Made by a program: the position numbers and the translations under genes. Under the pieces are notes generated by a model. The model was not told the origin of the DNA. It searched no databases and saw nothing but the letters and a program-made list of their open reading frames with translations. 64,000 bases of DNA from an uncultured bacterium (GTDB lineage Bacteria > Actinomycetota > Acidimicrobiia > Spongiisociales > UBA5794): contig CAWDDT010000007.1 in assembly GCA_963801165.1 (NCBI GenBank), positions 64,001 through 128,000 of the forward strand, given 5' to 3'. Within the stretch, counting starts at the first letter, position 1. Each line of letters starts with the position of its first letter. Positions 13,214-57,882 of this stretch are shown here, piece by piece.

Positions 13214-13223
13214 GGTGTCTCCT

Positions 13224-13446: not shown

Positions 13447-13544
13447 GTAGCGAACGAGATTGCCCGGTTGGATGCGCTGCGGCGAGCGGTCGTCTTCGTC
13501 GGGTGCGTCCGGTTTCGCTCAGCTGGGACCAGGGGCGCATGCGC

Positions 13545-13802
13545 TCAGGAGCGGACCCGAAACCCGGAGAGAGTGTCGTCGGGAACGACCGGAGGGTCGA
13601 GACGTCGGCGACCCGGGCCGCGGGCGGTCCTTCCTCGAGGAAGCCGACGAAGCGGGTAACGGCCTCCTCGGGACCCTGAGCCCACGTCCTGACGGTCCCA
13701 TCGGCCCGGTTCACCACCCACCCAACAAGACCGAGCGAGCGGCCACACGCAGGGTCGTGTAGCGGAAGCCGACTCCCTGAACCCGCCCGAAACGGTCGCC
13801 AC
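13545..13802 (-). pseudogene. acyP: Acylphosphatase, frameshifted (pseudogene or sequencing error)
   Basis: [25 protein letters not shown] and C-terminal GFRVRS lie in different frames; at least three frameshifts are needed to join them. Confidence 0.8.
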
Positions 13803-13898
13803 GACGGCGCTTTACTCCTCCACTGTGACCTCTGGTCGATCCAGCACCCAGTCTGTCACATTCCTATTCGCTTGGTGGGGCGCCAATGCACCGGCCGT

Positions 13899-17807: not shown

Positions 17808-17916
17808 TATCCGTCCCTCCCGATCCGCAACCGATCCTACGCAGGCATATTGTGGAATGGGCGTGATTCTCGGCCATCCCCGCATTGGCGGTGGCGACCT
17901 GTGGCACACTGGCGGC

Positions 17917-18856: not shown

Positions 18857-19462
18857 ATGACCTTATATGTCGGTTCATTGCGGATAGCCGAGACAAATGA
18901 CGTGGTCGAAGCCCAGTTCGACGTCGCCGAAGATGAGCTCACCGTCAGTACAGATGGCGAGCAGCTGGGAACCTGGCCGCTGCGCGAGATCGGCCTCGAC
19001 GACACCGGGACAGAGATCTATATGGCACTCGGTGGCGAAGATGTCATCGTCAACATGCGCGATCGCGATGCGTTCGTGGCTGCAATCACACCTCCCAAGA
19101 AAGCTAGAGCCCGCCATGCCAAGCCGAAGCGGACCAGGCCGGAGATGCCCCACATGCTGGGTGCGGTCCGCCGGTTGGTGGACCGTGACCAGTGGCGGGA
19201 CTGGCTGTCGGACCGATTGGTTCGGTGGGTCATTGCGTCGGGCGTCGTCATCATCGTGGCGTTGCTGGCGCTCTTTGCCACGAGCAGCCTGGGCATGGTC
19301 CTCGTACTCGGGGGCATGGTCGCCATGGTGATCGCCGCCCTCGCCGTCAGCGAGGATCTGAGCGCGGTCAGTTGGGTGCCGGAGCAGCTGTCCGAAGCGA
19401 CTCTCGTGATGATTGGTGTCGCGGCCATGGCACTCGGCGGTCTTCTGATCTTTCTCGACTGA
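18857..19462 (+). CDS. Hypothetical membrane protein (soluble beta-rich N-terminus, three C-terminal TM helices)
   Basis: Plausible composition and hydrophobic C-terminus; fills the gap between the kinase and qor; no family recognised. Confidence 0.7.
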   Translation: MTLYVGSLRIAETNDVVEAQFDVAEDELTVSTDGEQLGTWPLREIGLDDTGTEIYMALGGEDVIVNMRDRDAFVAAITPPKKARARHAKPKRTRPEMPHMLGAVRRLVDRDQWRDWLSDRLVRWVIASGVVIIVALLALFATSSLGMVLVLGGMVAMVIAALAVSEDLSAVSWVPEQLSEATLVMIGVAAMALGGLLIFLD

Positions 19463-28864: not shown

Positions 28865-29167
28865 CTAGCCGAACCAGTGGACACGGCACCACGTGCGGCG
28901 CTCGCATTCGGGGCACTGCATCCAGCGGCTGTATTGCTTGCCGGGAACCCAGAAGGAGATGAAGGCCACCCGCACCCCGAGCTCGAGGGTTGTCATCCGC
29001 GTGTGGGCGAGACACCGCGAGCATTCCACGACGACGGTGCCGCGCCGTCTCGGTCCTGCGCTGAAGAATGCGCGCTTGCCCTGCTCCGGCGACGAACCGG
29101 ACGCGACGTCGCCGGGCGCCGGGGGTGAGAACAGGGCCTTCTTGCCCATCGGATCAGTGCCGCTCAC
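28865..29167 (-). CDS. Small hypothetical protein with two CxxC motifs (putative Zn ribbon)
   Basis: ECSRC and QCPEC; GAGGAG RBS and GTG start inside the 3' end of parA. Confidence 0.75.
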   Translation of the reverse strand: MSGTDPMGKKALFSPPAPGDVASGSSPEQGKRAFFSAGPRRRGTVVVECSRCLAHTRMTTLELGVRVAFISFWVPGKQYSRWMQCPECERRTWCRVHWFG

Positions 29168-29945
29168 TGCTTCTCCTCTTTCCGGCCCGTACCGCACCGT
29201 CGATGGCCTTTGCCAGCGATCGGTAGGCAACAGCGGGTTTGGACGAGCGGGCGTGCCGCAATACGGACTTGCCGTACGCCGGTGCTTCGGCTGCTCGTAC
29301 CGACTTCGGTATCGGTGGATCGAATACCTTCAGTTCGTGCTGGCTCGCAACCGTTTCGAGCACTTGCCGGGCCAAGCGCGTGCGACCGTCGTACATCGTT
29401 GCGACGCCACCAAGAACACCGAGAGAGTCGTTGGTGTAGGCGCGCACATCGCCGATCGTCTCCAGGAGTTGCCCTACGCCCCGATGGCTGAGCGTGTCGC
29501 ACTGGAACGGTATCACCACCCAGTCCGCCGCGGTCAGAGCGTTGATCGTCAGGATCCCGAGAGAAGGCCCGCAGTCGATGAGCATGTAGTCGTAGTTATC
29601 GTGCAGCGGCTTGAGCGCCCGCGCCAGAACGAACTCGCGGCCCGTCCTGGTCATGAGATGAACCTCGGCGCCGGCGAGGTCGATCGAGGAGGGGAGCAAG
29701 TCGGGACCATCGTGGCTCTCGATCAACACCGATCGAGCAGGGGTACGGCCGACAAAGACGTCGTGGAGCGTGGCCTCCAGATTCTCGCCGTTGACGCCCG
29801 AGGCATAGGTGAGACAGGCCTGTGGATCGAGATCGACGAGAAGCACCGACCGGCCCATGTCCGCGAGCGCATCGCCGAGCGTATGCACGGTCGTGGTCTT
29901 GGCGACGCCGCCCTTCTGGTTGGCGAATGCGATCACTGACGCCAT
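29154..29945 (-). CDS. ParA/Soj family ATPase (orphan)
   Basis: NQKGGVAKTTT deviant Walker A, DLDPQ, IDCGPSLG; TACACT-N7-ATG leaderless start; no parB adjacent. Confidence 0.93.
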   Translation of the reverse strand: MASVIAFANQKGGVAKTTTVHTLGDALADMGRSVLLVDLDPQACLTYASGVNGENLEATLHDVFVGRTPARSVLIESHDGPDLLPSSIDLAGAEVHLMTRTGREFVLARALKPLHDNYDYMLIDCGPSLGILTINALTAADWVVIPFQCDTLSHRGVGQLLETIGDVRAYTNDSLGVLGGVATMYDGRTRLARQVLETVASQHELKVFDPPIPKSVRAAEAPAYGKSVLRHARSSKPAVAYRSLAKAIDGAVRAGKRRSSERH

Positions 29946-29988
29946 GACACGGAGTGTAGTTGCGGGCGCGGCCGCGGCTGCTGGGAGG

Positions 29989-31413
29989 TCAGTCCCAATC
30001 TGTGTGGAACAGCTCTCCGGGCGGTCCGTCGACCCGCTCGTAGGTGTGTGCCCCGAAGAAGTCGCGCTGTGCCTGGATGAGGTTCGCCGGAACGCGGGCC
30101 GACCGGTATCCGTCGAAGAAAGCCAGGGCAGCACTGTATGCGGGCACCGCGATGCCGGCCGCCACCGCCCGGTTCACGGTTCGTCTCCAGCCGGGTTGGG
30201 CTTCGTCGATCGCAGCTGCGAAGTAGTCGCTGACAAGGATGTTCCCCAGATCGCCGTCGGCGGCGAACACATCCATGAGCTCCCCTAGAAAGCGGGAGCG
30301 GATGATGCAACCACCTCGCCACATCGAGGCGATCGAGGCGAAGTCGAGATCCCAACCGTGGGCCGCCGCCGCACCGGACAGGATCATGAATCCCTGCGCG
30401 TACGCGACGATCTTGGACGCGTACACGGCGTCGTGCAGGTCGCGGATCACCGCATCGGCCGGATCCGGGATGCGCACGGCAGGAGCGGAGAAGCGGGAAG
30501 AGGCCACCCTCCGCTGCTCGAGTAGCGACGAGACGATGCGGGCATACACCGCGGCGGCGGCGATGGTGGTGGGTTCGCCGAGATCCATGGACGATTTCAC
30601 CGCCCACTTGCCGGTACCTTTCTGACCAGCCCGGTCGAGGATCTTCTCGAGCAATGGGGTGCCATCGGTGTCGAGCCGCTTCATGATCGCTGCGGTGATT
30701 TCAACCAGGTACGAGTCGAGCGGTCCGTCGTTCCAACGGGCAAACACCGCGGACATGTCGTCGTGGTTGAGCCCGAGCCCACGGTGCATCACGTCGTAGG
30801 CCTCGGCGAGCACCTGCATGTCGCCGTACTCGATCCCGTTGTGAACGGTCTTGACGAAGTGGCCGGCGCCGTCGCTGCCGATCCATTCGCAGCAGGGTGT
30901 ACCGTCGACGTCGGCGGCGATGTCCTGGAAGATGGGCCTTACCGACGGCCATGCGCTTGCGGTTCCGGCGGGCATGATGGAAGGCCCGGTCCGTGCCCCG
31001 GCCTCTCCCCCCGATATCCCGGCGCCGATGAAGGCCAGGCCCGCCGCTTCGAGCCTACGGGCCCGATCGATGGTGTCGGTGTAGAGCGAGTTGCCGCCGT
31101 CGATAATGATGTCACCCTCATCGAGCATTGGCTGTAGCCTCCCGATGAGGTCCTCCACGGGACTGCCCGACTTCACCATGAGCAGGATTCGGCGTGGCTT
31201 TGCAAGCGATGCGACGAGTTCCTCGAGCGAGTGGGTGCCGATCACAGCGGTGTCTCGGGCGGGACCGCCGAGGAAGTCGTCCACAGTGCTGGCCGTACGG
31301 TTCCATACGGCCACCACGTAGCCGTGGTCGTCCATGTTCAGCACGAGGTTGCTCCCCATGACGCCGAGACCCACCACGCCTATGTCTGCTTTCGGTGTCA
31401 TTTCCGTGATCAT
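29989..31413 (-). CDS. gnd: 6-phosphogluconate dehydrogenase, decarboxylating (start 31413 or 31401)
   Basis: GLGVMG, HNGIEYGDMQ, QKGTGKW, QAQRDFFGAHTY. Confidence 0.98.
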   Translation of the reverse strand: MITEMTPKADIGVVGLGVMGSNLVLNMDDHGYVVAVWNRTASTVDDFLGGPARDTAVIGTHSLEELVASLAKPRRILLMVKSGSPVEDLIGRLQPMLDEGDIIIDGGNSLYTDTIDRARRLEAAGLAFIGAGISGGEAGARTGPSIMPAGTASAWPSVRPIFQDIAADVDGTPCCEWIGSDGAGHFVKTVHNGIEYGDMQVLAEAYDVMHRGLGLNHDDMSAVFARWNDGPLDSYLVEITAAIMKRLDTDGTPLLEKILDRAGQKGTGKWAVKSSMDLGEPTTIAAAAVYARIVSSLLEQRRVASSRFSAPAVRIPDPADAVIRDLHDAVYASKIVAYAQGFMILSGAAAAHGWDLDFASIASMWRGGCIIRSRFLGELMDVFAADGDLGNILVSDYFAAAIDEAQPGWRRTVNRAVAAGIAVPAYSAALAFFDGYRSARVPANLIQAQRDFFGAHTYERVDGPPGELFHTDWD

Positions 31414-31614: not shown

Positions 31615-34278
31615 GTGGTGCGAGTGACCTTCGGTAACAATCGGAAGTCGGCGCTGAGCGTGGCCGCTAGGGCGGCTCGGCGGATGAAGCGCGGCCGCGT
31701 GGCGCGTCGCGCGGCAGTCTGGCTTTGGCTGCTGGCCCTTTCGGGGTTTGTCGCTGCCGGGCTCGTCGGATGGTGGAAATGGACCGCCCCCGCCGTTCTG
31801 CCCCACGCCCTTGCGTGGTGGGGTTTGCTCATCGGCTTCTACATATCTGAATGGCTTGTAGTCACGATCCGATACGGTAACCGGGCTCACGCATTCTCGA
31901 TGGGAGCGATTCTGCTGGTGGTTGGGCTTCTGGTCGTGAGACCTGTCGAGCTCCTCGCCGTTGTTGCTCTCTCCACTGTGGTGTATATCGGATCGAAGCG
32001 CCGCGAGCCCCTCGTTGTGCTCGTCCTGCACATCGGGCGGCGGCTGCTGGAGGCCTCGGTCGCCCTTGTTATCTACGCTCTGGCAGCCCACAGCGGTGAC
32101 CCTTTTGGTTCGACCGGATGGCTGGTGATCATGGCCGCGGTGGTGGCGGCCTTCCTGGCGGGTCATAGCGCATTCTCGCTCGCCGGCGCCATCCAGGGTT
32201 TCGAGTCCTCGTGGGGTGAGAGCCTCGAGTCATACGGCTTTGGTGCCTTCGTCAGCGTGGTCAACGCCACCCTCGGCATGCTTGTTGCCGAGGCTGTGTT
32301 CTCCGCACCGCGCGCTGCCTTCTTCGCCGTCATCCCGGCGCTCGGCCTGTTCGCAGGCTTCCGTGCCTATGCACTCTCCAAACAGGAGCGGGTCAGACTC
32401 GGCCAGCTGTACGCTGCCACGCGTGATCTGCATGCGTCTCCGCAGCTGGAGGAGTCTCTCCTCTCGGCTGCCGGTCATGCCCGGGCGATGTTCGATTCCG
32501 AGTTCTGCGAGATCGTGCTCGAGCTCGGGGGCGAGCGGAACGCCTTTCGCACCATCGCCGGTCCCGGCGACAACAAGTCAGCGATGGAGGCGACCGAGAT
32601 GGACCGGTGGCGTACGGTCTGGGACCAGGCCAAGGAGCGAAATGCCGCGTTCGTCATCGACCGTTCCGGATCGCTCGCCTCGTCGGCCGGCGACCGGCGT
32701 CTCCCCATCGTCGCCGCCATGGTGGCCCCGGTCTGTGTCGGCGAGGCCCATGTCGGCATAATCGTCGTAGCCAACCCCCTCGACGATGCCGCCCTTTTCT
32801 CCAAGTCCGACCTGAAGCTGCTCGCCGCACTCTCCGAGCAGGTAGCGGTTGCCGTCGACAACGGGCAGCTCGAGGACTCGTTGTTAGAGCTGACCCAGCT
32901 CAAGGCGGAGCTGGAGCATCAGGCCCTGCACGACGGTCTGACCGGGTTGGCGAACCGGGCGCTGTTCGGCGAGAGCATCTTCCACGCCTTGCAGCAGACG
33001 AGACGCACGGCAGGCGACATCGCGGTGCTGCTCATGGATCTCGACGACTTCAAGGAGATCAACGACAGCCTGGGTCACGGAGCGGGCGACGAGGTGCTGG
33101 TGGCGGCGGCCAACCTGCTGCGTAGCGAGTGTGGTCAGGAGGACATCATTGCCCGGCTCGGCGGTGATGAGTTCGGGGTGCTTCTTCAGGATGTCAGCGG
33201 CGCCCAGCAGGCGATCGAGACGGCGCAGAGGATCCTCGCCGCGCTGGGTAGCTCGCTGCGAATCTCGGGTCGGGACATCCAGGCCAACATCAGTATCGGG
33301 ATCGCCTTCGGCCGCTATGGCGACACCTCGACACAGGTGCTGCGCAACGCCGATGCGGCGATGTACGCAGCCAAGAGCGACGGGAAGGGCACGTTCCGGG
33401 TCTTCGAGTCGAGCATGCACGCCGCCGTGCTCGCTCAGCTCAAGATGCGGGAGGATCTCGAGGCAGCGATCGCGCGACAGGAGCTCCGGTTGCTGTATCA
33501 GCCGATCGTCAACCTGGCGGACGGCTCGCTCCGTGGCTTCGAGGCCCTGCTGCGCTGGCAGCACGCGCTCAAGGGATGGCAGAACCCGGCTACCTTCATT
33601 CCCTTTGCTGAGGAGACGGGGCTCATCCACGACATCGGGCGCTGGGTTCTGTGGGAGGCGGCCCGCCGTTGCCGGGCGTGGATCACGCTTCTCAATCCCC
33701 AACCCGGTGAGTTCAAGGTGTCGGTGAACCTCTCAGCTCGGCAACTCGACGACGCGTCGATCGTCGCCGAGGTCTCCAGGGTCCTCGAGGAGATGGCCTT
33801 CGATCCCCGATTCCTCGTCCTGGAGATAACGGAAACGGCGATGATGAACGCCGCTCCGAGCCTTCTCGATGAGCTCCACAGCCTGGGTTGCCCGCTGGCG
33901 ATCGATGACTTCGGCACTGGTTACTCCTCGCTGGCCTCACTGCACAAGCTGTCGATGGATATCATCAAGATCGACCAGGTGTTCGTGCGCGGGCTGGCCG
34001 ACGAGAACGACAATTCGTCCCCGTTCGTCGGCACGATGGTCGGTCTCAGCCAGGCACTCGGGCTGCAGACGATTGTGGAGGGTATCGAGACCAAGGAGCA
34101 ACTCGAGAAGCTCATAGAGTTGGGCTGCGACACAGGCCAGGGGTTCTATTTCGCCAAACCGCTCCCGCTCGAGCAGGCCCAGCAGCTCGTGGAGCGTCAG
34201 GCCAAGGGCGAGCCGGTGTTCGATCTCGAAGCTATGGCGGCCGGCTATCGCGATCGACGGCTCAGGTCGGTCCCGTAG
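31615..34278 (+). CDS. Membrane-bound diguanylate cyclase/phosphodiesterase (TM-GAF-GGDEF-EAL); start may be 31684
   Basis: HDGLTGLANR, DLDDFK, RLGGDEF, FEALLRW, EITE, IDDFGTGYSS, QGFYF. Confidence 0.95.
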   Translation: MVRVTFGNNRKSALSVAARAARRMKRGRVARRAAVWLWLLALSGFVAAGLVGWWKWTAPAVLPHALAWWGLLIGFYISEWLVVTIRYGNRAHAFSMGAILLVVGLLVVRPVELLAVVALSTVVYIGSKRREPLVVLVLHIGRRLLEASVALVIYALAAHSGDPFGSTGWLVIMAAVVAAFLAGHSAFSLAGAIQGFESSWGESLESYGFGAFVSVVNATLGMLVAEAVFSAPRAAFFAVIPALGLFAGFRAYALSKQERVRLGQLYAATRDLHASPQLEESLLSAAGHARAMFDSEFCEIVLELGGERNAFRTIAGPGDNKSAMEATEMDRWRTVWDQAKERNAAFVIDRSGSLASSAGDRRLPIVAAMVAPVCVGEAHVGIIVVANPLDDAALFSKSDLKLLAALSEQVAVAVDNGQLEDSLLELTQLKAELEHQALHDGLTGLANRALFGESIFHALQQTRRTAGDIAVLLMDLDDFKEINDSLGHGAGDEVLVAAANLLRSECGQEDIIARLGGDEFGVLLQDVSGAQQAIETAQRILAALGSSLRISGRDIQANISIGIAFGRYGDTSTQVLRNADAAMYAAKSDGKGTFRVFESSMHAAVLAQLKMREDLEAAIARQELRLLYQPIVNLADGSLRGFEALLRWQHALKGWQNPATFIPFAEETGLIHDIGRWVLWEAARRCRAWITLLNPQPGEFKVSVNLSARQLDDASIVAEVSRVLEEMAFDPRFLVLEITETAMMNAAPSLLDELHSLGCPLAIDDFGTGYSSLASLHKLSMDIIKIDQVFVRGLADENDNSSPFVGTMVGLSQALGLQTIVEGIETKEQLEKLIELGCDTGQGFYFAKPLPLEQAQQLVERQAKGEPVFDLEAMAAGYRDRRLRSVP

Positions 34279-35505: not shown

Positions 35506-35762
35506 ACAGGAGAGCCTATACGGCCGCGGTTCGGGTCGAGTGGATGTCGGGTGGCCGCTGCGGGGGTCGGTTCCGCCCCGATGACGACGGAATGGTGCCG
35601 GGCCCATCTTGTGTGCGAGCCTTTGCATTTCTCATTGGGCCGCTCCATCGGCCCAGGTAGTATGTCGGAGTCCCCTGGATCTCGAGCTGGCGCAGGGGGT
35701 ACTGCTGTGGGACTAGGGTGACTAGACATCGGGCGACACGGCGAAATGGCGCCACTTATAGA

Positions 35763-35789
35763 TCAAGACGGGTTTGGTACGGCCGATAG
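35763..35789 (+). promoter_or_regulatory. Sigma28 (FliA/WhiG)-type promoter
   Basis: TCAAG-N14-GCCGATAG, ending 8 nt before ATG 35798. Confidence 0.7.
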
Positions 35790-35797
35790 GAATTCCT

Positions 35798-38700
35798 ATG
35801 AACAGCGCAAATGTCCCAAGCGGCCCCAGACGGCCGAGGTTCTCGACGGCCCGCCGCGGCTTCGAGAAGGAGGAAGTCGAGACCTTCGTCAATGAGATGT
35901 GGGAGACGCACGACAAGTTGGCGTCTTCCGCAGCACTCGCCGAACGCCGGCTGACGGACGCGACCTCGCGCCTCGAAGAGAACGAACTCCGCCTCAAAGA
36001 GGCAACGGATCGCATAACCGACCTCGAGTCCCGGATGGCGACGGGGTCCGAGGCTACCGACCCGGTCAAGACCGACGACGAGCAGATGAAGTCGATGCTT
36101 GCGGCCAAAGAGCGCATCCTCGACCGTGCCAAGGAGCGGGCCCGGCAGATCGAGGACGAAGCACGGGAATCCGCAAGTCAGGTCGTTGCCCGCGCTCGTG
36201 ATGAGGCCGACCGAATTGCAGCCGCTACCCCCGTCTCGGCCCCCGCTACCCAGTTCACCACTGAGCCCACCACTGAGATTGCTTCCCCGACCCACGAAAG
36301 CGTTGTTCTCGCCAAGAAGGAAGCAGCCGTTGTCCTGGCGCGCGCTGAGCAGAAGGCCGCGACGATCATCGCCGACGCTAAGCAGATCGAACAACAGGCC
36401 CGGAGTGCGAGCTTTGCCAAGAGCGACGTCGACGAGTTGGCTCGGGGCACGCTCGATGCTGCCCACGCCCGCGCCGCCTCGATCACCGCGCGCGCTGAGG
36501 CTGTTGCTGCCGAGGCGTCGCAGGACGCGGCCCGAATGCGGGCCGAAGCCACCGCCGCCACCGCACAGGCTCGTGAAAAACTAGCCGCGGCCGGCGCCGA
36601 GGCCGCTCATATGACCGTGGAAGCAAACGAGTTGCTGGCCAAGGCACGGACCGCCATAGCCGCGGCCCGGGAGGAAGCCGAGACCGCCACCGCCGAGGCC
36701 GAGGCCCGGGTCAACATGCTGACCCGTACCGCCGACAACTATGCGACCCGGGTTCGCTCCGAGGCCGACCAGGCGGCAAAGCGCGTACGTGCGCTCGCCG
36801 ATGACGACGCCGGCAAGCTGCGGGTCCAGGTCGACACCGAGGTCGGCGACGCTCGCTCCAATGCCGAGGCGATGCTCGCCGAGGCTGCTTCGGCCCAGGA
36901 GAGTGCCGAGGCTGCGCTCCGTGGCGCCAGGCTCGAGGCGAAGTCGCTCGTCGACGAGGCGAATCGCCGGGCGGCCGAGGTGCGGGCTGCCGCAACCAGC
37001 GAAGCCGCCGAGGAGAAGACACGTATTACGGCTGAGGCCGAGGCGATGCGGCTCCGAGCCGCCGAGGAAGCACAACTCCTGGAGCGGAAGACCGAGCGGG
37101 CCCACAAGGAAGCTCGCGCTCGGGCCGACAACGCACGCAACGACGAAGAGAGGGCTGCCTCTCTGGTCGTCGAGGCCGAGGCAAAGGCCGAGGGAATCAT
37201 GGCCGCAGCCGAACAGGCGGCCGCCAACCGGCAAGCCGACCTGGACCGGCAGGCACTGCAGGCCAAGGAGGAGTTCGCCGCCCGTATGGCCGCCATCGTC
37301 GAGAGCGAGCAGAGTCTCGCCGGCAAGACGCAAGATCTCGAGACCGAGCGTGGGGAGCAGGCAGCTGCCCACGCAGCGGGCCAGGCCGAGGTTGCCGCTC
37401 TGAAAGAGCAGGCAGTCGCAGAACTGGAGCGGGCCAAGACCGAGAGCGCCAAAGTCATCGAGTCGGCACGGGGCGAGGCAGCGCGTCTCGTCACCGAAGC
37501 CGAAGCGTCTGCACAGGATCGGCTCGCTGGAGCCGACGCGGACGCCGCCGACAAGATAATGGCTGCCGAGAGGCGCGCCTCCGACATCATTGGTGCCGCC
37601 GAGACGAGCAAAGCCAAGTTGATCGCCGAGGGTGAGAACCTTCTGCAAGCTGCTCAGCGTGAGGGCGTCTCCGCCCGGCGCGAGGCCGGCGAGGCGGCCG
37701 GCGAGATGCGTAGTGCTGCAGCCGCCGAATGCGACATGACCAAGGCAGAGGCTCGACGTTACCTCGCCGAGGCCGAGGAAGAGCGTCGGCAGGCTCGTGA
37801 CGATCACGCAGAGGCCACCGCCGTCCTCGACCGGGCCAAGACCGACGCTGAGGGGATTCGGGCGGCAGCCGAGCGCGAGGCGACCGAGCGTGCTCTGGGA
37901 AACCGTGCCGAGCGGGAGCGTCTCGGCAAGCTCGCGGAGGAGCTCGAGGCTCAGCGACGCGAGGTCGAGGTAGAACAGTCAACGCTCGCGGCTCAGAAAT
38001 CGCAGTCCGAGATGTCGCGGCGTGAGGCAGATGAGACTCTGTCGCGAGCCCGTGCCGATGTCACCCGCATGCTCGAGGAAACCAAAGCCCAGATGGCCGA
38101 GGAGAAGTCACAGATCGATCTGCGTCGCCAGGAGATAGCTCAAGACCGGGAGGCGATCGAGTCGTGGCGTGCCGAGCTGACGGGATGGAGAGCCCAGCTC
38201 GACAAGGAACGGGCCATGGTCGATGCCTCAAAGTCGCTGGTAGAGCAGGAACGTGCCGAGCTGAAGCGGGAGATGGCCAAGACCGAAGGGCGCTGGGACG
38301 AGCTGGAGAGGCGTGGGACGAGCCTGCTCGCGGGCGCCCAGCAAGAGGCCGACGCGATCATAGAGCGAGCCTGGTCCGAGGCGAGGCGTGTCATCGGCCA
38401 TGCCGACGAGAGCGACGAGGCCGAGCGGCTTGCCGAGCTGCGTGCCGAATTGGAGAAGCAGCGTGGCGACTTCGAGAAGAGCCGGGTGGAGTTTGAGCAG
38501 AGCCAGGCTCAGCTGGAGCTGGAGCGTGCCGAACTGATCGCCGACCGCGAGGCGTTCGTCGCCGAGGTCGCCGCCAACAGCCAGGTCGACGGAGCAACGA
38601 TCAGCGAAGCGCTCAACGAGTTGGAGCAAGAACTGGCCCGGTTGGACGCGGCTTCCCCCGAACCGCCCAGCCTGGAGCCGGTGACTCCCAACACCACCGA

Positions 38701-39106
38701 TGGTGTGCAGGGCCCACGGGGCAACTGGGACATGAGCTGGTCGGCGGAGGACAAGGCAGCCGAGATGCCCGATGAAGAGGCAGAGCCGGTTGCCGAGGAC
38801 AGCGGCGACACTGAAGCCGGTGATGACGCCGACGCAGACGATGACGCCGACGATGACGCCGACGCAGACGATGACGCCGACGACACAGCCGACGCCGCAG
38901 CCGACGACGCAGCGGAATCCTCCCCGGACGACGAAGACGAGGCCATCCCGGAGGCTGCCGAGGGTGACGATCTCGGTGAGAGCCGGTATACCCGTAAGGG
39001 TCGCCGTCTCCCCAGGATCGAGAGCGGCGAGGGCGACTCGAAGTCCTCAGGCAGCGGTTTGAGGAACGCAATCATCAGCGGAAACAAACGCCGTAGCTCC
39101 TCCTGA
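35798..39106 (+). CDS. DivIVA-domain protein with very long Ala/Glu/Arg coiled coil and acidic tail
   Basis: FSTARRGFEKEEVETFV matches the DivIVA N-terminal motif; about 900 aa nearly proline-free A/E/R-rich; DDDADA tail. Confidence 0.85.
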   Translation: MNSANVPSGPRRPRFSTARRGFEKEEVETFVNEMWETHDKLASSAALAERRLTDATSRLEENELRLKEATDRITDLESRMATGSEATDPVKTDDEQMKSMLAAKERILDRAKERARQIEDEARESASQVVARARDEADRIAAATPVSAPATQFTTEPTTEIASPTHESVVLAKKEAAVVLARAEQKAATIIADAKQIEQQARSASFAKSDVDELARGTLDAAHARAASITARAEAVAAEASQDAARMRAEATAATAQAREKLAAAGAEAAHMTVEANELLAKARTAIAAAREEAETATAEAEARVNMLTRTADNYATRVRSEADQAAKRVRALADDDAGKLRVQVDTEVGDARSNAEAMLAEAASAQESAEAALRGARLEAKSLVDEANRRAAEVRAAATSEAAEEKTRITAEAEAMRLRAAEEAQLLERKTERAHKEARARADNARNDEERAASLVVEAEAKAEGIMAAAEQAAANRQADLDRQALQAKEEFAARMAAIVESEQSLAGKTQDLETERGEQAAAHAAGQAEVAALKEQAVAELERAKTESAKVIESARGEAARLVTEAEASAQDRLAGADADAADKIMAAERRASDIIGAAETSKAKLIAEGENLLQAAQREGVSARREAGEAAGEMRSAAAAECDMTKAEARRYLAEAEEERRQARDDHAEATAVLDRAKTDAEGIRAAAEREATERALGNRAERERLGKLAEELEAQRREVEVEQSTLAAQKSQSEMSRREADETLSRARADVTRMLEETKAQMAEEKSQIDLRRQEIAQDREAIESWRAELTGWRAQLDKERAMVDASKSLVEQERAELKREMAKTEGRWDELERRGTSLLAGAQQEADAIIERAWSEARRVIGHADESDEAERLAELRAELEKQRGDFEKSRVEFEQSQAQLELERAELIADREAFVAEVAANSQVDGATISEALNELEQELARLDAASPEPPSLEPVTPNTTDGVQGPRGNWDMSWSAEDKAAEMPDEEAEPVAEDSGDTEAGDDADADDDADDDADADDDADDTADAAADDAAESSPDDEDEAIPEAAEGDDLGESRYTRKGRRLPRIESGEGDSKSSGSGLRNAIISGNKRRSSS
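38822..38881 (+). repeat. 30-bp in-frame tandem repeat x2 encoding DDADADDDAD
   Basis: gatgacgccgacgcagacgatgacgccgac repeated twice. Confidence 0.85.
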
Positions 39107-39134
39107 CGAGGAGTTACTTCCCCGAGACGGTGTG

Positions 39135-42100
39135 ATGAGACGAAGCAGAAAGGTCGCCGACCGGCCGGATGCGGGTCCTGAAAGCGCCGGGGACGAGGCG
39201 CTGAATCCTCCTTCGGAGGGCGACGACTCACCGATAGACACCGAGCCCGTCGCTGAAGCCGGCGCCGGTCAGCCTGAGCGACCCCCGATACCCTCGGTTC
39301 TCGACCGGCTCGGCGCAAACTCAGACGAGACGACACGTGATCTCCTGGCAGCTGCCGAGGCGCGCGCCAGTTCGATCCGGGCTCGTGCCGAGGTCGAGGT
39401 AGCGGACGCGCTGGCGGCAAGCGCCCGGATGCGCTCGGAGGCCGCCTCGCTGTCGGCGACGGCGCGCGAGGCGCTGGCAACCGCATCGAACGATGCCGAG
39501 AGGACCCGCCACAAGGCCCGGTCTGCCCGTGAAGAGGCAGAGGCGTTGCTGGAGCGCGCCCGCGTCGATGGGCCCCAGATCCTTGCGTCGGCTCGCCAGG
39601 AAGCGAGCGCCTTGCTCGAGGCTGCCCGCAAGAAAGCCGCCAAGAGCGAAGCCGAGACCCGGCTGATCGTCGACGAGCAGCTCGATCTGGCGCGGCACGA
39701 GGCGGCCGAGATCGTGATGAAGGCCAGGAGAGAAGCCGAGCAAGCCCGAGAGCGGCTCCTCGATGAGCTCGCGGAGCTGCGGAGCGCTGCCGACAGCCAG
39801 ATTGCCGAGCGACGTGCCGATGCCGAAGATCAGACCGCGGCCTTGTTCAGCGCCGTGGACGAGGCTCGCGCCGATCTCGACAACGCGATAGTCCGTACCG
39901 CGTCTGATGTCGCCGACGCCCACCGTGCCGCAGAATCGGTTCTCGACGACGCACAGGTGCTTGCAGACGCCATCAAGACCGCAGCCGCCGACGACCAGGC
40001 TGTCGCTCAGATCAAGCTCGCTGAGGCCACCTCCCGCATCGCCGAGATGAATGCGGACCTCGACGACCGGCTTGCTGCAGTTGCTCGCCGGGAACGCGAA
40101 GTCATCCAAATGCGTGTCGACGTCGAGGAGGAAATCGCTGAGATGCAGCGGCGGTCCGCCGCGGCAGCCGAGGCAGTCCACCATGAGATCGAGGAGCGCC
40201 GTCGGGAGGTCGGCAAACTCAACCACGAGCTCGAGGCGGTCGAGCTGGAGACGGCGGCGCGGATTGCCTCGAGTCAGGCAGAGGCCGCCGAGTCGTTGGC
40301 GGCGGCAACAGAACGAGCTCGCCAGACGGAGGAGTCGGCAGAGGGGCGCGCCGCAGAAATGCTCGCGGATGCCGAGACGAGGCTGGCGACGGCGGAGCGC
40401 AAACTGGCGGATAGCGAGCTGCGAGAGCGTGAGTCCCGGCAGGTGCGCGAGGACGCCGAGCAAGAGGCGAGAAGGCTTCGCCAGGAGGCGGATATGGCCT
40501 CGATTGCGTTGGAGCGGAGCCGCACGGAGGTGGAGCAGGTCACCGCCGAGGCGGTCGGCGCCGCCAACGCCACACGCATGGAGGCCGAGCAGGAGGCCGA
40601 GGAGATTAGAAACGCGGCGCGTGCCGAGGCAGAGAAGGTGAGGGAGGAAGCATCCGTCCGTCTGGCCGATGCGGTGGCCGAGGCCGCGTCGATCCACGCC
40701 GCGGCCGAAGAGTCGGCGCGACTCGTCGAAGAGGGGCGTCGCCAGGCGGCGGATCAGTACGTGGAGCACCGAAGATCCGCGGCCGCCGCGCTCATCATCC
40801 AGGCCGAAGACCGTGGCGCCGAGTTGACTGCGCTTGCCGAGAAACGCGCCGAATCGCTCCGCAAGCAGCGAATCATCGAGCTCGACAGCGAGCTTGCAGA
40901 CCGGCGCGAGGAGCTGGCTGCTGAGCTGGCCGCCGGACGCGAAGCGGCTCGGGTCAAGGTGGACGAGGCGTTGGCGCGCGCCGGGGAGATCGAGAACGAC
41001 GCCGTGCAAACGGCCACGGAGACGGTGGCCTTCGCCGAGCAGAGAGCCGCCGCCTTGACCGCCGAGGCGGAAGCAACGGCCGGCAGGGTGCGGGCCGACG
41101 GTCAGCGACTTGCCGACGACATGGTTGCCGAGGCGACGCGGAGGCGTGACGAGATTCTCGCCTCGATACAAGCAGAGACCGCAGCAATCGATGCGGCCGC
41201 CAAGACCGCTCGGGAAGCCAGGGCAGAGGCTGCGAGGCAGACCGCGGCGGACCTTGTGGCCGGGGCCGAGGAGGAGGCGACGCAGCTGGCGGCCGCAGAG
41301 CAGGCCCGCCTGTCGGTGCTCGGCGAGGATGCGGCTGCACATGCGGTAGAGCTCGTCGGCCGTGCGGAGGCCGAGGCCGAGGAGATCAAGCGGGTGGCCG
41401 CGGCGGAAACGGAATCGATCGCTGCTGAGAGGGAAGCCGCTGCCGCGCAGGCGGTTGAGTTGGTTCGTCGTGCGGAGGCTGAGGCTGAGGAGATCCGCGC
41501 TGGGGCAGATCGAGCACGGATGGAAGGGGAGGCCGGGGCGGCTCGGTTGGTGGACGAGGCCAGGGCGGAGGCCGAGGAGATTAAGCGGGCGGCCGCGGCG
41601 GAGACGGAATCGATGGCCGCAGAGAAGCAGGCCGCTGCCGCGCAGGCGGTTGAGTTGGTTCGGCGGGCGGAGGCTGAGGCGGATGAGGTTCGGTCGGCGG
41701 CGGCTGCCGAGCGTGAGGCGGCGGCGCGGACGGCTGGCGAGTTGATTGCTCGGGCGGAGCAGGAGGCTGCGGAGTTGGCGTCTGTTGAGCAGGCGCGGTT
41801 GGCGGCGCTTGCGGAGGACGCGACGGCGCAGGCTGCCGAGTTGGTTCGTCGTGCGGAGGCTGATGCTGAGGAGATCCGGTCGGCGGCGGAAGCCGATCGT
41901 GAGGCTGCGACCGCACGGGCGCTGGATCTGATCGCCAACGCGGAGTTGGAAGCGAAGGATGTGGCCAAGCAGGCGGTGGCCGAAGCGACGGCCGAGCAGC
42001 ATGGTGTGCTCGACGCAAGAGCTGAGCTGGCTGCGGCGCAGGATGCTTTCTCGTTGCGGGAGGAAGCTCTGGCTATAGAGAAGGGCTCTCTTGCGGAGGA

Positions 42101-42605
42101 GCATGAGCGCATCGGCGCCGAGCGGGAGCATCTCACCGCCGAGAACGAGAAGCTGCACAGAAAACAGGCGTTGCTGGCGGAAGCGCAGGAAGCCTTCGTG
42201 AGCGAGCGCACGCTACTCCAGCGGCGATGGGCCGAAGTCGAGCACGAAGGCATCGCAGCTCTCGAGAAAGCACACGAGCAGGCGGAGCGCATCCTCGAAG
42301 ACGCGAGAAAGCAGGCGGATGCTCTCGCCGCCGGTCGATCGGACGCTGATGAGGTCGGGGCGACCTCCGCTACCACCGCACACGAAGCACTGGCTCGTCT
42401 CGATTCTGCGCTCGACGCCGCCCGTCGGGTCGTGGCCCGACGTGCCAGTGCCGAGGAGGAGGAGACCGGCGTCGACAACGACACCGCGATGTCGGGCGTG
42501 TGGGATGAGATCGCCGCAGACACGACGACGGGCTCGGACCGGCCGGCCACGTTCGAGGTCCCGAGGGACCCGGCCGTAGACGAGACCGGATTGTCGCCGG
42601 CCTGA
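39135..42605 (+). CDS. Very long coiled-coil protein (Scy-like composition)
   Basis: About 1156 aa, A/E/R-rich, recurring 'A(R/E)xEAEEI' units, disordered Pro/acidic ends; no catalytic motif. Confidence 0.85.
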   Translation: MRRSRKVADRPDAGPESAGDEALNPPSEGDDSPIDTEPVAEAGAGQPERPPIPSVLDRLGANSDETTRDLLAAAEARASSIRARAEVEVADALAASARMRSEAASLSATAREALATASNDAERTRHKARSAREEAEALLERARVDGPQILASARQEASALLEAARKKAAKSEAETRLIVDEQLDLARHEAAEIVMKARREAEQARERLLDELAELRSAADSQIAERRADAEDQTAALFSAVDEARADLDNAIVRTASDVADAHRAAESVLDDAQVLADAIKTAAADDQAVAQIKLAEATSRIAEMNADLDDRLAAVARREREVIQMRVDVEEEIAEMQRRSAAAAEAVHHEIEERRREVGKLNHELEAVELETAARIASSQAEAAESLAAATERARQTEESAEGRAAEMLADAETRLATAERKLADSELRERESRQVREDAEQEARRLRQEADMASIALERSRTEVEQVTAEAVGAANATRMEAEQEAEEIRNAARAEAEKVREEASVRLADAVAEAASIHAAAEESARLVEEGRRQAADQYVEHRRSAAAALIIQAEDRGAELTALAEKRAESLRKQRIIELDSELADRREELAAELAAGREAARVKVDEALARAGEIENDAVQTATETVAFAEQRAAALTAEAEATAGRVRADGQRLADDMVAEATRRRDEILASIQAETAAIDAAAKTAREARAEAARQTAADLVAGAEEEATQLAAAEQARLSVLGEDAAAHAVELVGRAEAEAEEIKRVAAAETESIAAEREAAAAQAVELVRRAEAEAEEIRAGADRARMEGEAGAARLVDEARAEAEEIKRAAAAETESMAAEKQAAAAQAVELVRRAEAEADEVRSAAAAEREAAARTAGELIARAEQEAAELASVEQARLAALAEDATAQAAELVRRAEADAEEIRSAAEADREAATARALDLIANAELEAKDVAKQAVAEATAEQHGVLDARAELAAAQDAFSLREEALAIEKGSLAEEHERIGAEREHLTAENEKLHRKQALLAEAQEAFVSERTLLQRRWAEVEHEGIAALEKAHEQAERILEDARKQADALAAGRSDADEVGATSATTAHEALARLDSALDAARRVVARRASAEEEETGVDNDTAMSGVWDEIAADTTTGSDRPATFEVPRDPAVDETGLSPA

Positions 42606-42819
42606 GCCGCAATCCACGGTTTCAGGTTGTCGGATCGCTCGATTGGCGTGGCCCCACCGTGATCGCGGTGGGGATCGCGTCCACGCACAGAGCGAAGCTG
42701 ACGAAACCGCCACGCCCCAGATTCCATTGCGGATCGAGCCATTCCTCCTCCCCGATCCGCACACCGCGGCTGAGCGAGTATCGTGGCTGTCTTGCATTCG
42801 ATTTCCCCGAGGTGTTGAT

Positions 42820-43719
42820 TTGAAGCGCTATCTGATTTGTGCCGCGGTTGTGGCCATGTTCGCTGCCGCTTGCGGCGGCGGTGGCAATGTCGCGGCCACT
42901 GTGAACGGGTCCGACATACAGGAGGCGACGGTGAGGAGCCTGGTCTCGGCCGATCAGGAGATGACCGATGCCGACTTCCGTGGTGTCCTCACCGCCATCG
43001 TCGAGTGGACCGCGATCAACGATGCCGCCAGTGCCGATTTCGGTATCGAGCCGACCGACCAGGAGATATCGGACTACTCGGACGGCATGGTCACCGATGC
43101 CGGTGTCTCCCGTGATGACTACCTGACGCAGAATCAGGTGTCGGAAGCTGGCTTTCTGCTCTACGCCGAGCAGCTTCTGATCGCAGACAAGGTGTTGGAG
43201 ATCTTCCGGCCCCAGGTCGCGACTCCCACCGCTGAGGAGGCTCAGCAGGCTCTGGCGGACGATCCGCTCTCGTGGACCACGGTGTGTGCATCCCACCTCC
43301 TAGTGGGGACCGCGGACGAAGCGAATGCCGCTCTCGCCCGGCTCGACGCAGGTGAGGACTTCGCCACGGTGGCGACCGATGTGTCGATCGATACCACGAG
43401 CGGCGCCAACGGCGGGGACCTCGGTTGTGTATCCCCTTCGCAGTGGGACCCGGACTTCGCCGACGCCGCGATGAACGCTGAAATCGGCGCCGTGACCGGG
43501 CCGGTGGAGACTCAGTTTGGGTTCCACCTCATCCTGGTCACGAGCCGTACCGAGGATACGACCGACGAGATCATCAGCCAGCTTGCGGATCAGCGTCTGT
43601 CCGACCTGGTGGGCGGGTGGTACCTGACCTCCGTTACCGACGCCGCGATCACCGTCGACCCCCAGTTCGGCACGTGGCAGACGGACCCGGCTCCGCAGAT
43701 CGTCGCTCCCGAGTCGTAA
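42820..43719 (+). CDS. PrsA/PpiC-type peptidyl-prolyl isomerase lipoprotein
   Basis: TTG start after GAGGTG; lipobox FAAAC; ASHLLV, GGDLG, TQFGFHLI. Confidence 0.9.
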   Translation: MKRYLICAAVVAMFAAACGGGGNVAATVNGSDIQEATVRSLVSADQEMTDADFRGVLTAIVEWTAINDAASADFGIEPTDQEISDYSDGMVTDAGVSRDDYLTQNQVSEAGFLLYAEQLLIADKVLEIFRPQVATPTAEEAQQALADDPLSWTTVCASHLLVGTADEANAALARLDAGEDFATVATDVSIDTTSGANGGDLGCVSPSQWDPDFADAAMNAEIGAVTGPVETQFGFHLILVTSRTEDTTDEIISQLADQRLSDLVGGWYLTSVTDAAITVDPQFGTWQTDPAPQIVAPES

Positions 43720-56052: not shown

Positions 56053-57291
56053 TTGGCTAGAACGCGTTTCAACCGGCTTGCGATGATGGTGCTGGTCGCC
56101 CTGGCAACTGCGGCGGGGATTCTCGTCTATGCGCACGTCGGTGATCCGCTCCCGCTGATCATCGGTACGGCGCTGATGACGGCGTCGCTGATGCTGCACG
56201 TCCCGGCGATGAGCGGCAACCGCGTGTATCTCGGTGTCGCCGCCGCCGCGGCCGTCCCCGTTGCGGTGGGGGATGCAGGTTTGGCGGCCGCGATATACAC
56301 GACATCTCTGACCGCCGCCTGGCTCTTGTATCTGGCGTTCCAGCTGGTTGATCGCACGTGGCTGAATTCGGAGTACCTCGCCGAGGTCATCGCCATCCTC
56401 GGCTTCGGGGGCACCTATCACCTTGTTTCCACCGTATTCGGAGTACACGGGTTCAGTTTCGCCGACCGTTTTCCCCACGAGGGCTACGTGGCGATCATCT
56501 GCGTGATCACCGGCGGAATCGTTTATCACGTTCTGCGGGCTAGTACCCGGTCGCTGATCGGTCTCGAGCGGGCGGACTTCTCACCGCGGTATTTATGGCT
56601 CGCCGGGCTCGAGGACTGGTCGGCGATCACCGTGCTCGTCCTGAGCGGGACGATGATCGGCACCGCGTATGCCGGGCTCGGATGGAAGGCGATAATTGTC
56701 GCCGCCGCCCCGTATTTGTTCACCCATCAGGCGCTCGAGCGCTACAACGGGACGAAAGTGACCTACGGCCAGACGATCCAGGCGCTCTCGCAGATTCCCG
56801 AGGTGGCGGGTCTTTCGCCTGTGGGCCACGCGGTACGCACCGGCAGGCTGGCTGCCGACATCGGTCGCGAGATGGGTCTCCACCCCGAAGATGTCGAGGA
56901 TCTCGAGTTCGCCGGCTACATGCACGACATCGGACGGATCACGCTCAACGAACCGGCGATCCTCCGAGCCGGCTACACCGAGGTCGACATTGCGCGCTGG
57001 GGCTCGCAGATAGTCTCCGAAGCGCCTCACCTGGAAGAGGTTTCGAAGATCGTCGGTGATCAATACCTTCCCTATCGCTCACCGGGAATGGAGATCGATC
57101 CGAGCGTGTCGGTGAGCTCGAAGATCGTCAAGGTCGTCAGCGCATACGACCAGTTTGTACATGAGTATCACATGGCGCCGATTCTGGCTCTCGAGCAGCT
57201 CCACAAGGGCTCCGCTTACGAGTTCGACCCCCGGGTAACCAGCTCGCTACGCAGGGTTCTCGAGTTCCGCGGCGAGCTCGACGAGCGGTAG
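56053..57291 (+). CDS. Membrane protein with degenerate HD-GYP-like domain
   Basis: About 7 TMs; TIQALS..E, GHAVR, HDIGR, EFDPRV; lacks HHE..GxGYP. Confidence 0.85.
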   Translation: MARTRFNRLAMMVLVALATAAGILVYAHVGDPLPLIIGTALMTASLMLHVPAMSGNRVYLGVAAAAAVPVAVGDAGLAAAIYTTSLTAAWLLYLAFQLVDRTWLNSEYLAEVIAILGFGGTYHLVSTVFGVHGFSFADRFPHEGYVAIICVITGGIVYHVLRASTRSLIGLERADFSPRYLWLAGLEDWSAITVLVLSGTMIGTAYAGLGWKAIIVAAAPYLFTHQALERYNGTKVTYGQTIQALSQIPEVAGLSPVGHAVRTGRLAADIGREMGLHPEDVEDLEFAGYMHDIGRITLNEPAILRAGYTEVDIARWGSQIVSEAPHLEEVSKIVGDQYLPYRSPGMEIDPSVSVSSKIVKVVSAYDQFVHEYHMAPILALEQLHKGSAYEFDPRVTSSLRRVLEFRGELDER

Positions 57292-57312: not shown

Positions 57313-57882
57313 CTAGACCTCACCGCGACGGTCTGCCGCCGATCCCGGGAGGCCCTGCGCTCCGCGCCGGAACAAACGAATCGGCTGCCGGAGTTGATCC
57401 TCGACGAACACGCCCAGCCCCACGGCGAGCAGGACGTCGCCCAGCGATATGACCGACCCCGGCATAGGGACGATATCTGCCAGAAAGGGCAACTTCGAGC
57501 TGCCGTCGAGCAAGACGTGCTTGGCATCGAGGTGCAACTTGCCGATCTCGCCTCCGGCGAGGTGGACCGCCTCGGGGAGGACGGGCATACCGTTGTTGAG
57601 CGCGATCACGGTGAGGTTCATCAAGATCCCGATACCGGCGATCCACATTCCCGGCAGACGCTGGTTGAGCAGGACAACGATGAGCAGTGGCAGGTATGAC
57701 AGGAGCACGAGCGAGACGGCCAGGTTTTTGGCATCGATGAAGTTGGCCGCGGTCTGCATACCGAGCCCGAGGAACAGCAGCCACCAGCCGCGCGCATATA
57801 TCTCCGCTACGTTGGATAGCTTCCCGCCCCGGAGTAGAGAGACCGCAACTGAAATGCCGATGACCACGAACAACCACAGCAT
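57313..57882 (-). CDS. DUF5317 family membrane protein
   Basis: LRGGKL, NLTVIALNNGMPV, LPFLADI, SLGDVLL. Confidence 0.85.
   Translation of the reverse strand: MLWLFVVIGISVAVSLLRGGKLSNVAEIYARGWWLLFLGLGMQTAANFIDAKNLAVSLVLLSYLPLLIVVLLNQRLPGMWIAGIGILMNLTVIALNNGMPVLPEAVHLAGGEIGKLHLDAKHVLLDGSSKLPFLADIVPMPGSVISLGDVLLAVGLGVFVEDQLRQPIRLFRRGAQGLPGSAADRRGEV

Follow-up and report, generated by a model that had tools for sequence, protein, structure and literature searches.

Two adjacent giant coiled-coil genes with a DivIVA-like head and a putative sigma-28/WhiG2-type leaderless promoter in Acidimicrobiia-like bacteria

Two long neighbouring genes on the forward strand of contig CAWDDT010000007.1 (assembly GCA_963801165.1), here named CC1 and CC2, raise the question of whether an uncultured bacterium encodes a cytoskeletal scaffold comparable with that of Scy and FilP, and what would switch it on. 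The stretch analysed, referred to as the window, comprises 64,000 nucleotides (nt), and all coordinates are given on it unless a related locus is named. An earlier note, made from the sequence alone, had described the locus as a tandem of giant coiled-coil proteins with a DivIVA head behind a sigma-28/WhiG-type promoter, and as a candidate polar scaffold. By a modest leaning, and by analogy with known proteins, we favour the view that CC1 and CC2 make up a conserved bicistronic pair with the architecture of the FilP/Scy class, whose products would form a regulated filament or a polar or septal scaffold. The genes, the head, the promoter and the lineage held up in comparison with relatives, while the novelty claimed for a long DivIVA-headed protein and the proposed membrane-targeting motif did not.

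The predicted tandem was borne out. CC1 extends from an ATG at 35798 to 39106 and encodes 1102 amino acids (aa). CC2 ends at 42605 and encodes 1157 or 1156 aa, starting from a GTG at 39132 or an ATG at 39135; with ATG starts the two genes are separated by 28 nt. Both proteins are rich in alanine, glutamate and arginine (A 22.7, E 14.9 and R 10.3 % in CC1; 27.1, 16.2 and 11.2 % in CC2) and poor in proline (1.7 and 1.3 %). The 19 prolines of CC1 are confined to residues 7–164 or 954–1072, and the 15 of CC2 to residues 12–148 or 1138–1156. No signal peptide or hydrophobic segment was seen in the translation of either protein. The guanine-plus-cytosine content by codon position agrees with coding on the forward strand for both genes. 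Long open reading frames (ORFs) also occur on the opposite strand, and are regarded as shadows because they are rich in leucine, arginine and glycine and because the longest antisense frame, 963 aa in the window, is reduced to 286–730 aa in six relatives while the sense frames stay open. Minus-strand ORFs (one of 945 aa and others) were accordingly rejected as genes on composition and on lengths not kept in the relatives. In the ORF list the CC1 frame is open from a TTG at 35774. This start was also rejected, since its position is within the promoter spacer and the upstream sequence is not conserved; all nine orthologues start with MNSA. CC1 and CC2 are real genes.

Relatives were obtained by scanning genomes. 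A first scan with the single CC1 protein produced 128 pattern matches, none of which was confirmed. A second scan, for which the query was an alignment of the CC1 head with three metagenome fragments, yielded eight loci (L001–L008); this count is a lower bound, because the scan used two peptide patterns only. The window and these eight loci are the nine genomes compared throughout. Five of the eight are titled as metagenome-assembled genomes of Acidimicrobiia or Acidimicrobiaceae, in agreement with the Acidimicrobiia-like source that had been proposed, and the others as 'uncultured bacterium', 'bacterium' and 'uncultured Gemmatimonadales bacterium'. When 1.84 billion representatives were searched exhaustively with HMMER, 30 proteins were returned at an expectation value (E) of 0.001 or less, all of them fragments of 82–443 aa that were 32–73 % identical. 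A word-indexed protein search with whole CC1 or its head (residues 1–125) found no match at E ≤ 0.001 among proteins of 606–1929 aa. The CC1/CC2 family is narrow, and public protein sets contain fragments only.

The order of the pair was the same wherever it was found: CC1 is followed by CC2 after 20–32 nt in all eight related loci, although in L006 and L007 the contig stops within CC2. The intact CC1 orthologues (n = 7; 1066–1093 aa) are 59–65 % identical to CC1 of the window and almost colinear with it, over 1133 alignment columns. Complete CC2 orthologues (n = 6) range from 1076 to 1334 aa at 40–59 % identity, and part of this length variation comes from repeat blocks of 29–65 residues (families D2 and D3). 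In L001, CC1 (10001–13223) is frameshifted: the ORF with the start codon ends at 11152 and another frame runs on to 13223, followed by an intact CC2 at 13256–16861. The GGDEF gene of the same locus has no detectable EAL domain; both features reflect either sequencing error or decay. In two metagenome fragments, P0004 (443 aa) and P0018 (95 aa), the CC1 head is fused straight to the CC1 tail and the rod is absent. These are either natural in-frame deletion variants or the product of assembly collapse over the repetitive rod.

The DivIVA assignment was examined on the isolated head. A DivIVA-like domain has been defined as a short motif followed by a dimeric heptad coiled coil (PMC9858780). In CC1 the corresponding region (35840–36046) comprises the motif F15..RRGFEKEEVETFVNE33 and a heptad helix at residues 24–83. 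The first 200 residues matched the Pfam DivIVA model (PF05103) with 30.8 bits, above the cut-off of 28 (E = 3.2 × 10−7), and the isolated heads matched it in 9/9 genomes at E ≤ 0.01, the best at 6.9 × 10−10. A profile of residues 1–75 retrieved 13 PDB sequences at E ≤ 10, with GpsB, DivIVA and Wag31 among them (matches include 9pv2, 8e2c, 8e2b, 2wuk, 2wuj and 6lfa); three GpsB entries were at E = 0.017–0.026, and two Bacillus subtilis DivIVA entries and Wag31 at E = 0.9–1.7. In these alignments RRGFEK(D/E)(Q/E)VE.YLDE of the profile was paired with ARGYRREEVDAFLDD of GpsB. Residues 22–110 form clean heptads, with autocorrelation lags of 7, 14, 21 and 28. AlphaFold2 modelled the head monomer as three helices (mean predicted local distance difference test score, pLDDT, 77.6; predicted template modelling score 0.28), with residues 1–23 as coil and the helix 24–83 at pLDDT above 90. 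Foldseek found one PDB match to this model, at E = 3.4, and a monomer model of long helices cannot display the DivIVA dimer fold.

At the motif itself, CC1 and its eight orthologues read G-F-E-K-[DE]-[QE]-V-E. Compared with the published pattern GY[DN]xx[QE]V[DN], the G, [QE] and V positions agree and the three departures (Y to F, and D/N to E twice) are all conservative. Sequence comparison supports a DivIVA-like domain on CC1, as the profile search suggested in the earlier note confirmed; the membrane-targeting role given to it there is unsupported. Profile positions 12–39 align with positions 10–37 of the 2wuk chain, and the invariant F15 sits four residues before R19. From these coordinates the membrane-binding loop-tip pair of B. 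subtilis DivIVA, F17/R18, corresponds to R19-R20 of CC1. The hydrophobic-plus-basic pair of DivIVA proper is not present in CC1, whose tip-aligned residue is Arg, and what had been called a membrane-targeting motif is a domain motif only. CC1 therefore resembles DivIVA, Wag31 and GpsB in its head motif and heptad helix, and differs from them in being four to five times longer, in a whole-protein score below the cut-off and in the arginine aligned with the tip residue. The pair also lies outside the neighbourhood of division genes (ftsZ, sepF, yggT) that has been described for DivIVA (PMC9858780).

Behind the head and a linker, the alanine-rich rod of CC1 (36293–38647; residues ~166–950) has a period of about 3.6 residues. 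Windowed Fourier analysis placed the peak at 3.60–3.62 in 8/8 CC1 orthologues (power 2.9–4.2, shuffles 1.42 ± 0.26) and at 3.62–3.66 in all seven CC2 sequences longer than 600 aa; the eighth CC2, a stub of 107 residues in L007, peaked at 3.54. Overall the rod power was 2.9–4.5, against 1.4 ± 0.25 for shuffled sequences with a maximum of 2.6. The strongest autocorrelation lags were 7, 11, 14 and 18 for CC1, a mixed heptad/hendecad signature, and 11, 29, 33 and 22 for CC2, a hendecad one. On the heptad-or-hendecad question raised by the earlier note, heptads come after the head motif and the two rods show a mixed pattern, at a period of 3.60–3.66.

Period alone is no proof of a coiled coil, because about 3.6 is the period of a plain helix. 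An alternative is that these proteins are not cytoskeletal, and that long amphipathic 11-mer helices coat a membrane, a lipid or polymer granule or the nucleoid, or serve in stress protection, much like apolipoproteins, late embryogenesis abundant (LEA) proteins or phasins. Besides the period and the lags of 11, 22 and 33, weak Pfam and NCBIfam matches to ATP synthase b, V-ATPase E, apolipoprotein and phasin-type helices would fit this idea; rod pieces searched against NCBIfam gave weak coiled-coil-type matches only. Such coating helices would not account for a DivIVA-like dimerisation head and its clean heptad segment, for a CC1 length held at 1066–1102 aa over those 1133 columns, or for the conservation of the rod ends and of tail motifs bearing tryptophan, and alanine-rich hendecads are known from the dimeric FilP and Scy (PMC9858780). 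We consider this alternative highly improbable.

The two rods are related to each other. With hhalign, CC1 206–692 matched CC2 74–490 at a probability of 97.5 % (E = 8.3 × 10−12), and composition-corrected BLASTP aligned CC1 212–395 with CC2 65–270 (E = 5 × 10−10) and CC1 780–862 with CC2 987–1062 (E = 4 × 10−4). On the strength of these matches CC2 is read as a paralogue of CC1 without the head. Its recognisable parts are a basic disordered N-terminus, a conserved rod start (39306–39551), internal repeats (41331–41963) and a conserved C-terminal region (42174–42503). Conservation is highest in the head, where the rods start and end, and in short motifs of the tails. The CC1 tail (38720–39103) consists of GNWDMSW (38720–38740), an acidic low-complexity tract and a basic C-terminal peptide (38975–39103), conserved as GESRY.RK.R.LP..E ... 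GLRNAII..KR. Residues G975, N976, W977, M979, W981, G1060–Y1064, L1071, P1072 and G1087–I1093 are invariant in 8/8 sequences. As family motifs the tails carry GNWDMLW and GESRYARK.R.LP..E ... GLRNAII in CC1, and SGVW and F(D/E)VP in CC2. The acidic tract is longer in the window than in its relatives through a D/A-rich tandem repeat (38822–38906; periods of 12, 18 and 30 nt). Complex prediction with the two rod starts (CC1 200–360 and CC2 58–215; score 0.12, mark 0.32) gave no answer either way. Taken together, CC1 and CC2 are probably cytoplasmic, paralogous coiled-coil proteins, CC1 being composed of a DivIVA-like head, a linker, a rod of ~800 residues and a conserved tail.

The upstream region of CC1 carries the second line of evidence. 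The earlier note had read a sigma-28/WhiG-type promoter placed for leaderless translation, and comparison of the nine genomes agreed with it. The element (35763–35789, forward strand) consists of a −35 TCAA(G) at 35763–35767 and a −10 GCCGATAG at 35782–35789, with 14 nt between TCAAG and GCCGATAG, or 15 nt counted from TCAA. In the upstream alignment all five bases of TCAAG and all eight of GCCGATAG were invariant in 9/9 genomes, with no invariant column in the spacer. The distance from the −10 to the ATG was 8 nt in eight genomes and 7 nt in one. A consensus of −35 TAAA and −10 GCCGATAA has been published (PMC8325347), and for WhiG2 one of T(A/C)AA-N16-GCCGATAA (bioRxiv 10.64898/2026.01.14.699351). 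Promoters of this type have CGA at the centre of the −10 and lie no more than 200 bp from a start codon. The CC1 element fits GCCGATAA at 7/8 positions of the −10, and TCAA fits T(A/C)AA. GCCGATA alone is not enriched in the window (8 observed, 5.6 expected). The bipartite pattern T[AC]AA-N14-16-GCCGATA occurred once in the 64 kb against 0.013 expected, and 4 of 300 first-order Markov simulations contained a match. An ATG 8 nt after the −10 leaves no space for a Shine–Dalgarno site, and AGGA occurs between the −10 and the CC1 start region in two genomes only; if the promoter is used, the CC1 messenger would therefore be leaderless. An invariant core around a variable spacer is a strong sequence footprint of a sigma-28/WhiG2-type leaderless promoter.

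A further element lies upstream of this core, at 35719–35749. It comprises the near-palindrome TGACTAGACA (35719–35728) and AATGG (35745–35749); TGA..AG and TG are invariant in 9/9 genomes, with the consensus TGACTAG(A/T)CA followed by AATGG. In L001 the element is a perfect palindrome, TGACTAGTCA, and the perfect palindrome recurs in that locus (~19405–19415) 11 nt upstream of the −35 of a kinase promoter. Its function may be that of an operator, or of a weak promoter of the housekeeping type. On this basis one could suppose that the sigma-28 motif is not a working promoter, or is not read by WhiG, that transcription starts at the TGACT...CACAAT-like element or answers to a palindrome-binding regulator, and that CC1 and CC2 are constitutive structural proteins. 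The conservation of the element 35–80 nt upstream of the ATG in all nine genomes, its resemblance to TGACT-N17/18-CACAAT in five of them, and the fact that no sigma factor was found in the window or loci speak for this possibility. It is very unlikely in our estimation, given 13 invariant core bases at fixed spacing and fixed distance to the ATG and the recurrence of the same core before two other gene families in the relatives. In addition, the window and L001 have a poor −10-like hexamer in the upstream element, and a sigma-70 consensus scan of the CC1 upstream region returned no match.

A sigma-28-like core, TCAAG-N14/15-(G/T)(C/T)CGAT.., precedes these other genes in the related loci. Three sites on the reverse strand (L002 2186–2213, L005 9834–9861 and L006 2495–2522) stand before an S8 subtilase divergent from CC1, with a leader of ~40–50 nt. 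Two on the forward strand (L001 19426–19453 and L002 11877–11903) stand before a membrane PAS-HisKA kinase; here the ATG follows 6–7 nt after the −10, so the kinase messenger would be leaderless like that of CC1. The similarity of the sites suggests that CC1, the subtilase and the kinase form a small regulon. A suitable sigma factor is known from the class: one WhiG2 homologue each is tabulated for Acidimicrobium ferrooxidans (RsiG 0, flagellar cluster 1), Acidithrix ferrooxidans (RsiG 1, flagellar cluster 1) and Ilumatobacter coccineus (RsiG 1, flagellar cluster 0) (PMC13595943, supplementary file 1). RsiG is a cyclic di-GMP (c-di-GMP)-dependent anti-sigma factor, and such control is found in many Actinomycetota (PMC8325347, PMC13595943); its twin-motif form occurs in 3/4 Acidimicrobiales (PMC8325347). 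The RsiG motif E(X)3S(X)2R(X)3Q(X)3D was not found in six frames of the window and loci. The CC1 locus resembles WhiG2 regulons in its T(A/C)AA and GCCGATAA-type elements directly upstream of the start and in the regulatory and c-di-GMP-related genes nearby, and differs from those described in that the target is a cytoskeletal-type gene pair.

We then compared the pair with Scy and FilP of Streptomyces. Both bear a DivIVA-like domain before alanine-rich hendecad rods, and Scy exceeds 1000 residues and has no N-terminal buttressing helix (PMC9858780); scy adjoins filP (PMC4255298). CC1 shares with them the N-terminal motif, the short heptad coiled coil and the long rod with hendecads (23–27 % Ala in CC1/CC2), and with Scy a length above 1000 aa and the absence of a helix before the motif, residues 1–23 being coil in the model. 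Like scy and filP, CC1 and CC2 are two adjacent paralogous coiled-coil genes on the same strand. The earlier note had presented a DivIVA head on so long a protein as new; this is already known from the FilP/Scy group, in which Scy has more than 1000 residues (PMC9858780). The differences lie elsewhere. FilP is short and has the head, whereas CC2 is giant and head-less, and both CC partners are giant. Acidimicrobiia are absent from the orders given for the FilP/Scy group in PMC9858780, and a sigma-28-type leaderless promoter such as that of CC1 is not mentioned for Scy or FilP in the available parts of the literature. No Scy or FilP occurred among the 30 proteins of the exhaustive search. Pfam scans of CC1 returned no Scy family, although PF28068 (Scy), named by the Atlas only, was perhaps outside the scanned set. 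The nearest clusters in the feature space of the Atlas were Scy and DivIVA-domain proteins, at 0.86–0.87, which is a lead only. By sequence CC1 and CC2 are not detectably orthologous to Scy or FilP, and share their architecture rather than membership in the families. What is new here is the lineage, the sigma-28-type control, and a duplication that gave rise independently to two giant paralogues.

Several results weigh against a scaffold of this class under a WhiG-type sigma factor. Whole CC1 stayed below the Pfam DivIVA cut-off of 28 (12.8 bits, E = 0.12), the PDB matches of the head were individually weak (E = 0.017–1.7), and the motif variant of CC1 and its eight orthologues, GFEKxxVE, lies outside the published pattern. 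The Scy equivalog NF041483 (growth_prot_Scy, cut-off 1040 bits) did not match whole CC1 or CC2; single pieces reached 24.2 bits, and one piece from L003 45.1 bits. Scy reportedly has a 51-residue repeat (Walshaw et al. in 2010), and no such periodicity was found in CC1 or CC2 (lag 51 = −0.012 and 0.024, respectively). A period of ~3.6 is given by any amphipathic helix too. The CC1 spacer is 15 nt, against the N16 published for WhiG2. At related sites of the loci a spacer of 15 or 16 occurs, and N15 is the classical length. The conserved upstream element could be another promoter or an operator. Finally, no gene for sigma-28 (whiG), RsiG, a flagellum or a pilus was found in the 64 kb or the eight loci.

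The last point bears also on a different explanation, that CC1/CC2 are a polar landmark for a motility organelle, like TipN, HubP or FimV. Such a landmark would mark the pole and recruit ParA/MinD-type ATPases and c-di-GMP proteins for the placement of a flagellum or type IV pilus. It would belong to the late genes of a motility regulon and would not be a factor of growth or shape. Sigma-28-type promoters classically drive motility genes. The targets of WhiG2 include pili, chemotaxis and diguanylate cyclase/phosphodiesterase genes (PMC8325347; bioRxiv 10.64898/2026.01.14.699351), and a flagellar cluster is present in two of the three Acidimicrobiia tabulated above (PMC13595943). ParA-like and GGDEF-EAL genes do lie near CC1, as had been noted, and occur in the neighbourhood of several relatives: a ParA/MinD-superfamily ATPase at 29154–30134 on the reverse strand (orthologues of 252 aa), and a GAF-GGDEF-EAL gene at 31615–34278 on the forward strand, with GGDEF, EAL and DDFG motifs, whose GAF-GGDEF(-EAL) homologues lie upstream in 7/9 genomes. 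The ParA-like gene is some 6 kb from CC1 and, within the DNA covered, present in four of the nine genomes, and different genes stand directly upstream of CC1 (aminotransferase in four, S8 subtilase in three, GGDEF-EAL in two). Beyond the shared neighbourhood, a functional operon link to either gene found no support, and a neighbourhood conserved among fairly close relatives is no sign of a functional link. No flagellar, pilus or chemotaxis gene was found in the window or the eight loci, and the architecture of CC1/CC2 is of the DivIVA, FilP and Scy type, whereas landmarks of the TipN, HubP and FimV kind are membrane-anchored. On balance a motility landmark appears unlikely.

For the scaffold reading, the following sequence of events can be proposed. 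The promoter would be read by the single WhiG2-type sigma factor known from cultured Acidimicrobiia, yielding a CC1 messenger that is presumably leaderless. By analogy with DivIVA, FilP and Scy, CC1 would dimerise via its head, and alone or with CC2 would assemble into a filament or a polar or septal scaffold. The scaffold would be made only upon sigma release, amounting to a lifestyle or cell-cycle switch. Polar localisation, filament formation, membrane binding, binding between CC1 and CC2 and any link with ParA or GGDEF-EAL are inferred only. The ratio of CC1 to CC2 may be set by a hairpin at their junction (39093–39117), which has the CC1 stop codon in its loop. In single-sequence folds it was present in eight of the nine genomes (the window and L002–L008; −13.9 to −27.3 kcal/mol) and absent from the frameshifted L001. 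The stems differ in sequence yet stay paired, the non-coding 3′ arm changing along with the coding 5′ arm. RNAalifold gave no consensus for the junction, as the structural register was lost in the MAFFT alignment. The hairpin may be an attenuator, a stabiliser or an element coupling CC1 to CC2, and could thereby adjust read-through into CC2.

A bolder version can be put forward, which as a whole we rate as quite unlikely. Restrained by RsiG and c-di-GMP, the single WhiG2 of Acidimicrobiia would directly turn on a polar scaffold that is heteropolymeric and resembles intermediate filaments, along with the membrane histidine kinase and the secreted subtilase. The CC1 head would anchor the scaffold at the pole or septum, the two rods would assemble with each other via their conserved ends, and the C-terminal peptide of CC1 would dock the nearby ParA-type ATPase. 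That peptide, G.GLRNAII..KR, is reminiscent of the ParA-stimulating N-terminal peptide of ParB.

Downstream of CC2 no canonical terminator was found. A GC-rich hairpin at 42645–42681 (−28.4 kcal/mol, no U-tract) is a candidate terminator; a hairpin of this strength occurs in the window only, those of six relatives being weaker (−9.3 to −17.9 kcal/mol). The next gene on the same strand, at 42820–43719, encodes a PrsA-like peptidyl-prolyl isomerase lipoprotein with a rotamase domain and a lipobox-like N-terminus; it follows CC2 in 7/7 genomes with downstream DNA, and is itself followed by an amidohydrolase gene in six of these. The gap between CC2 and the isomerase gene is 214 nt in the window, against 47–79 nt in the relatives.

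Three further observations were made elsewhere in the window. The reverse strand at 13899–17918 encodes a protein of 1339 aa that combines RCC1 and RTX repeats with bacterial Ig/cadherin-like domains and a PKD domain, and looks like a large secreted or surface protein. An 822-aa ORF at 4378–6846 (forward strand), in an ABC transporter cluster, joins an ABC-type branched-chain permease domain to an amidohydrolase domain. A protein with an HD/HD_5 domain, which may be HD-GYP-like (56053–57291, forward strand), adjoins a DUF5317 membrane protein (57313–57882, reverse strand), and may represent a further c-di-GMP-related gene.

Scy, FilP and DivIVA organise polar growth in mycelial actinomycetes. 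For early-branching, mostly unicellular and uncultured classes such as the Acidimicrobiia, comparable scaffolds were not covered in the literature found. No paper was found that treats DivIVA in Acidimicrobiia. A search for Acidimicrobi with Scy and FilP led to two papers mentioning all three, and neither describes such a pair in its available parts (PMC9858780, PMC4255298). The supplementary files of PMC13595943, as far as available to text search, contain no DivIVA, Scy, FilP or 'coiled', and the main text of the WhiG2 preprint contains no 'Acidimicrob', DivIVA or 'cytoskelet', with 'coiled' used once, for RsiG. Surveys by motif pattern and fixed spacer would miss members of this kind, because their motif is GFEKxxVE and their spacer is 15 nt; a query fixed at N16 would miss the CC1 promoter for the same reason. 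Short-read metagenome protein sets contain the CC1 and CC2 genes as fragments only. The locus provides a testable case, with DivIVA-like proteins of Scy size that form a lineage-specific pair and were duplicated independently. The promoter of the pair, conserved base for base and of the sigma-28/WhiG type, would tie cytoskeletal-type proteins to a sigma factor known for motility, pili and sporulation. If the directly switched scaffold set out above were to prove true, the WhiG switch would have controlled polarity and the cytoskeleton since before Streptomyces sporulation arose.

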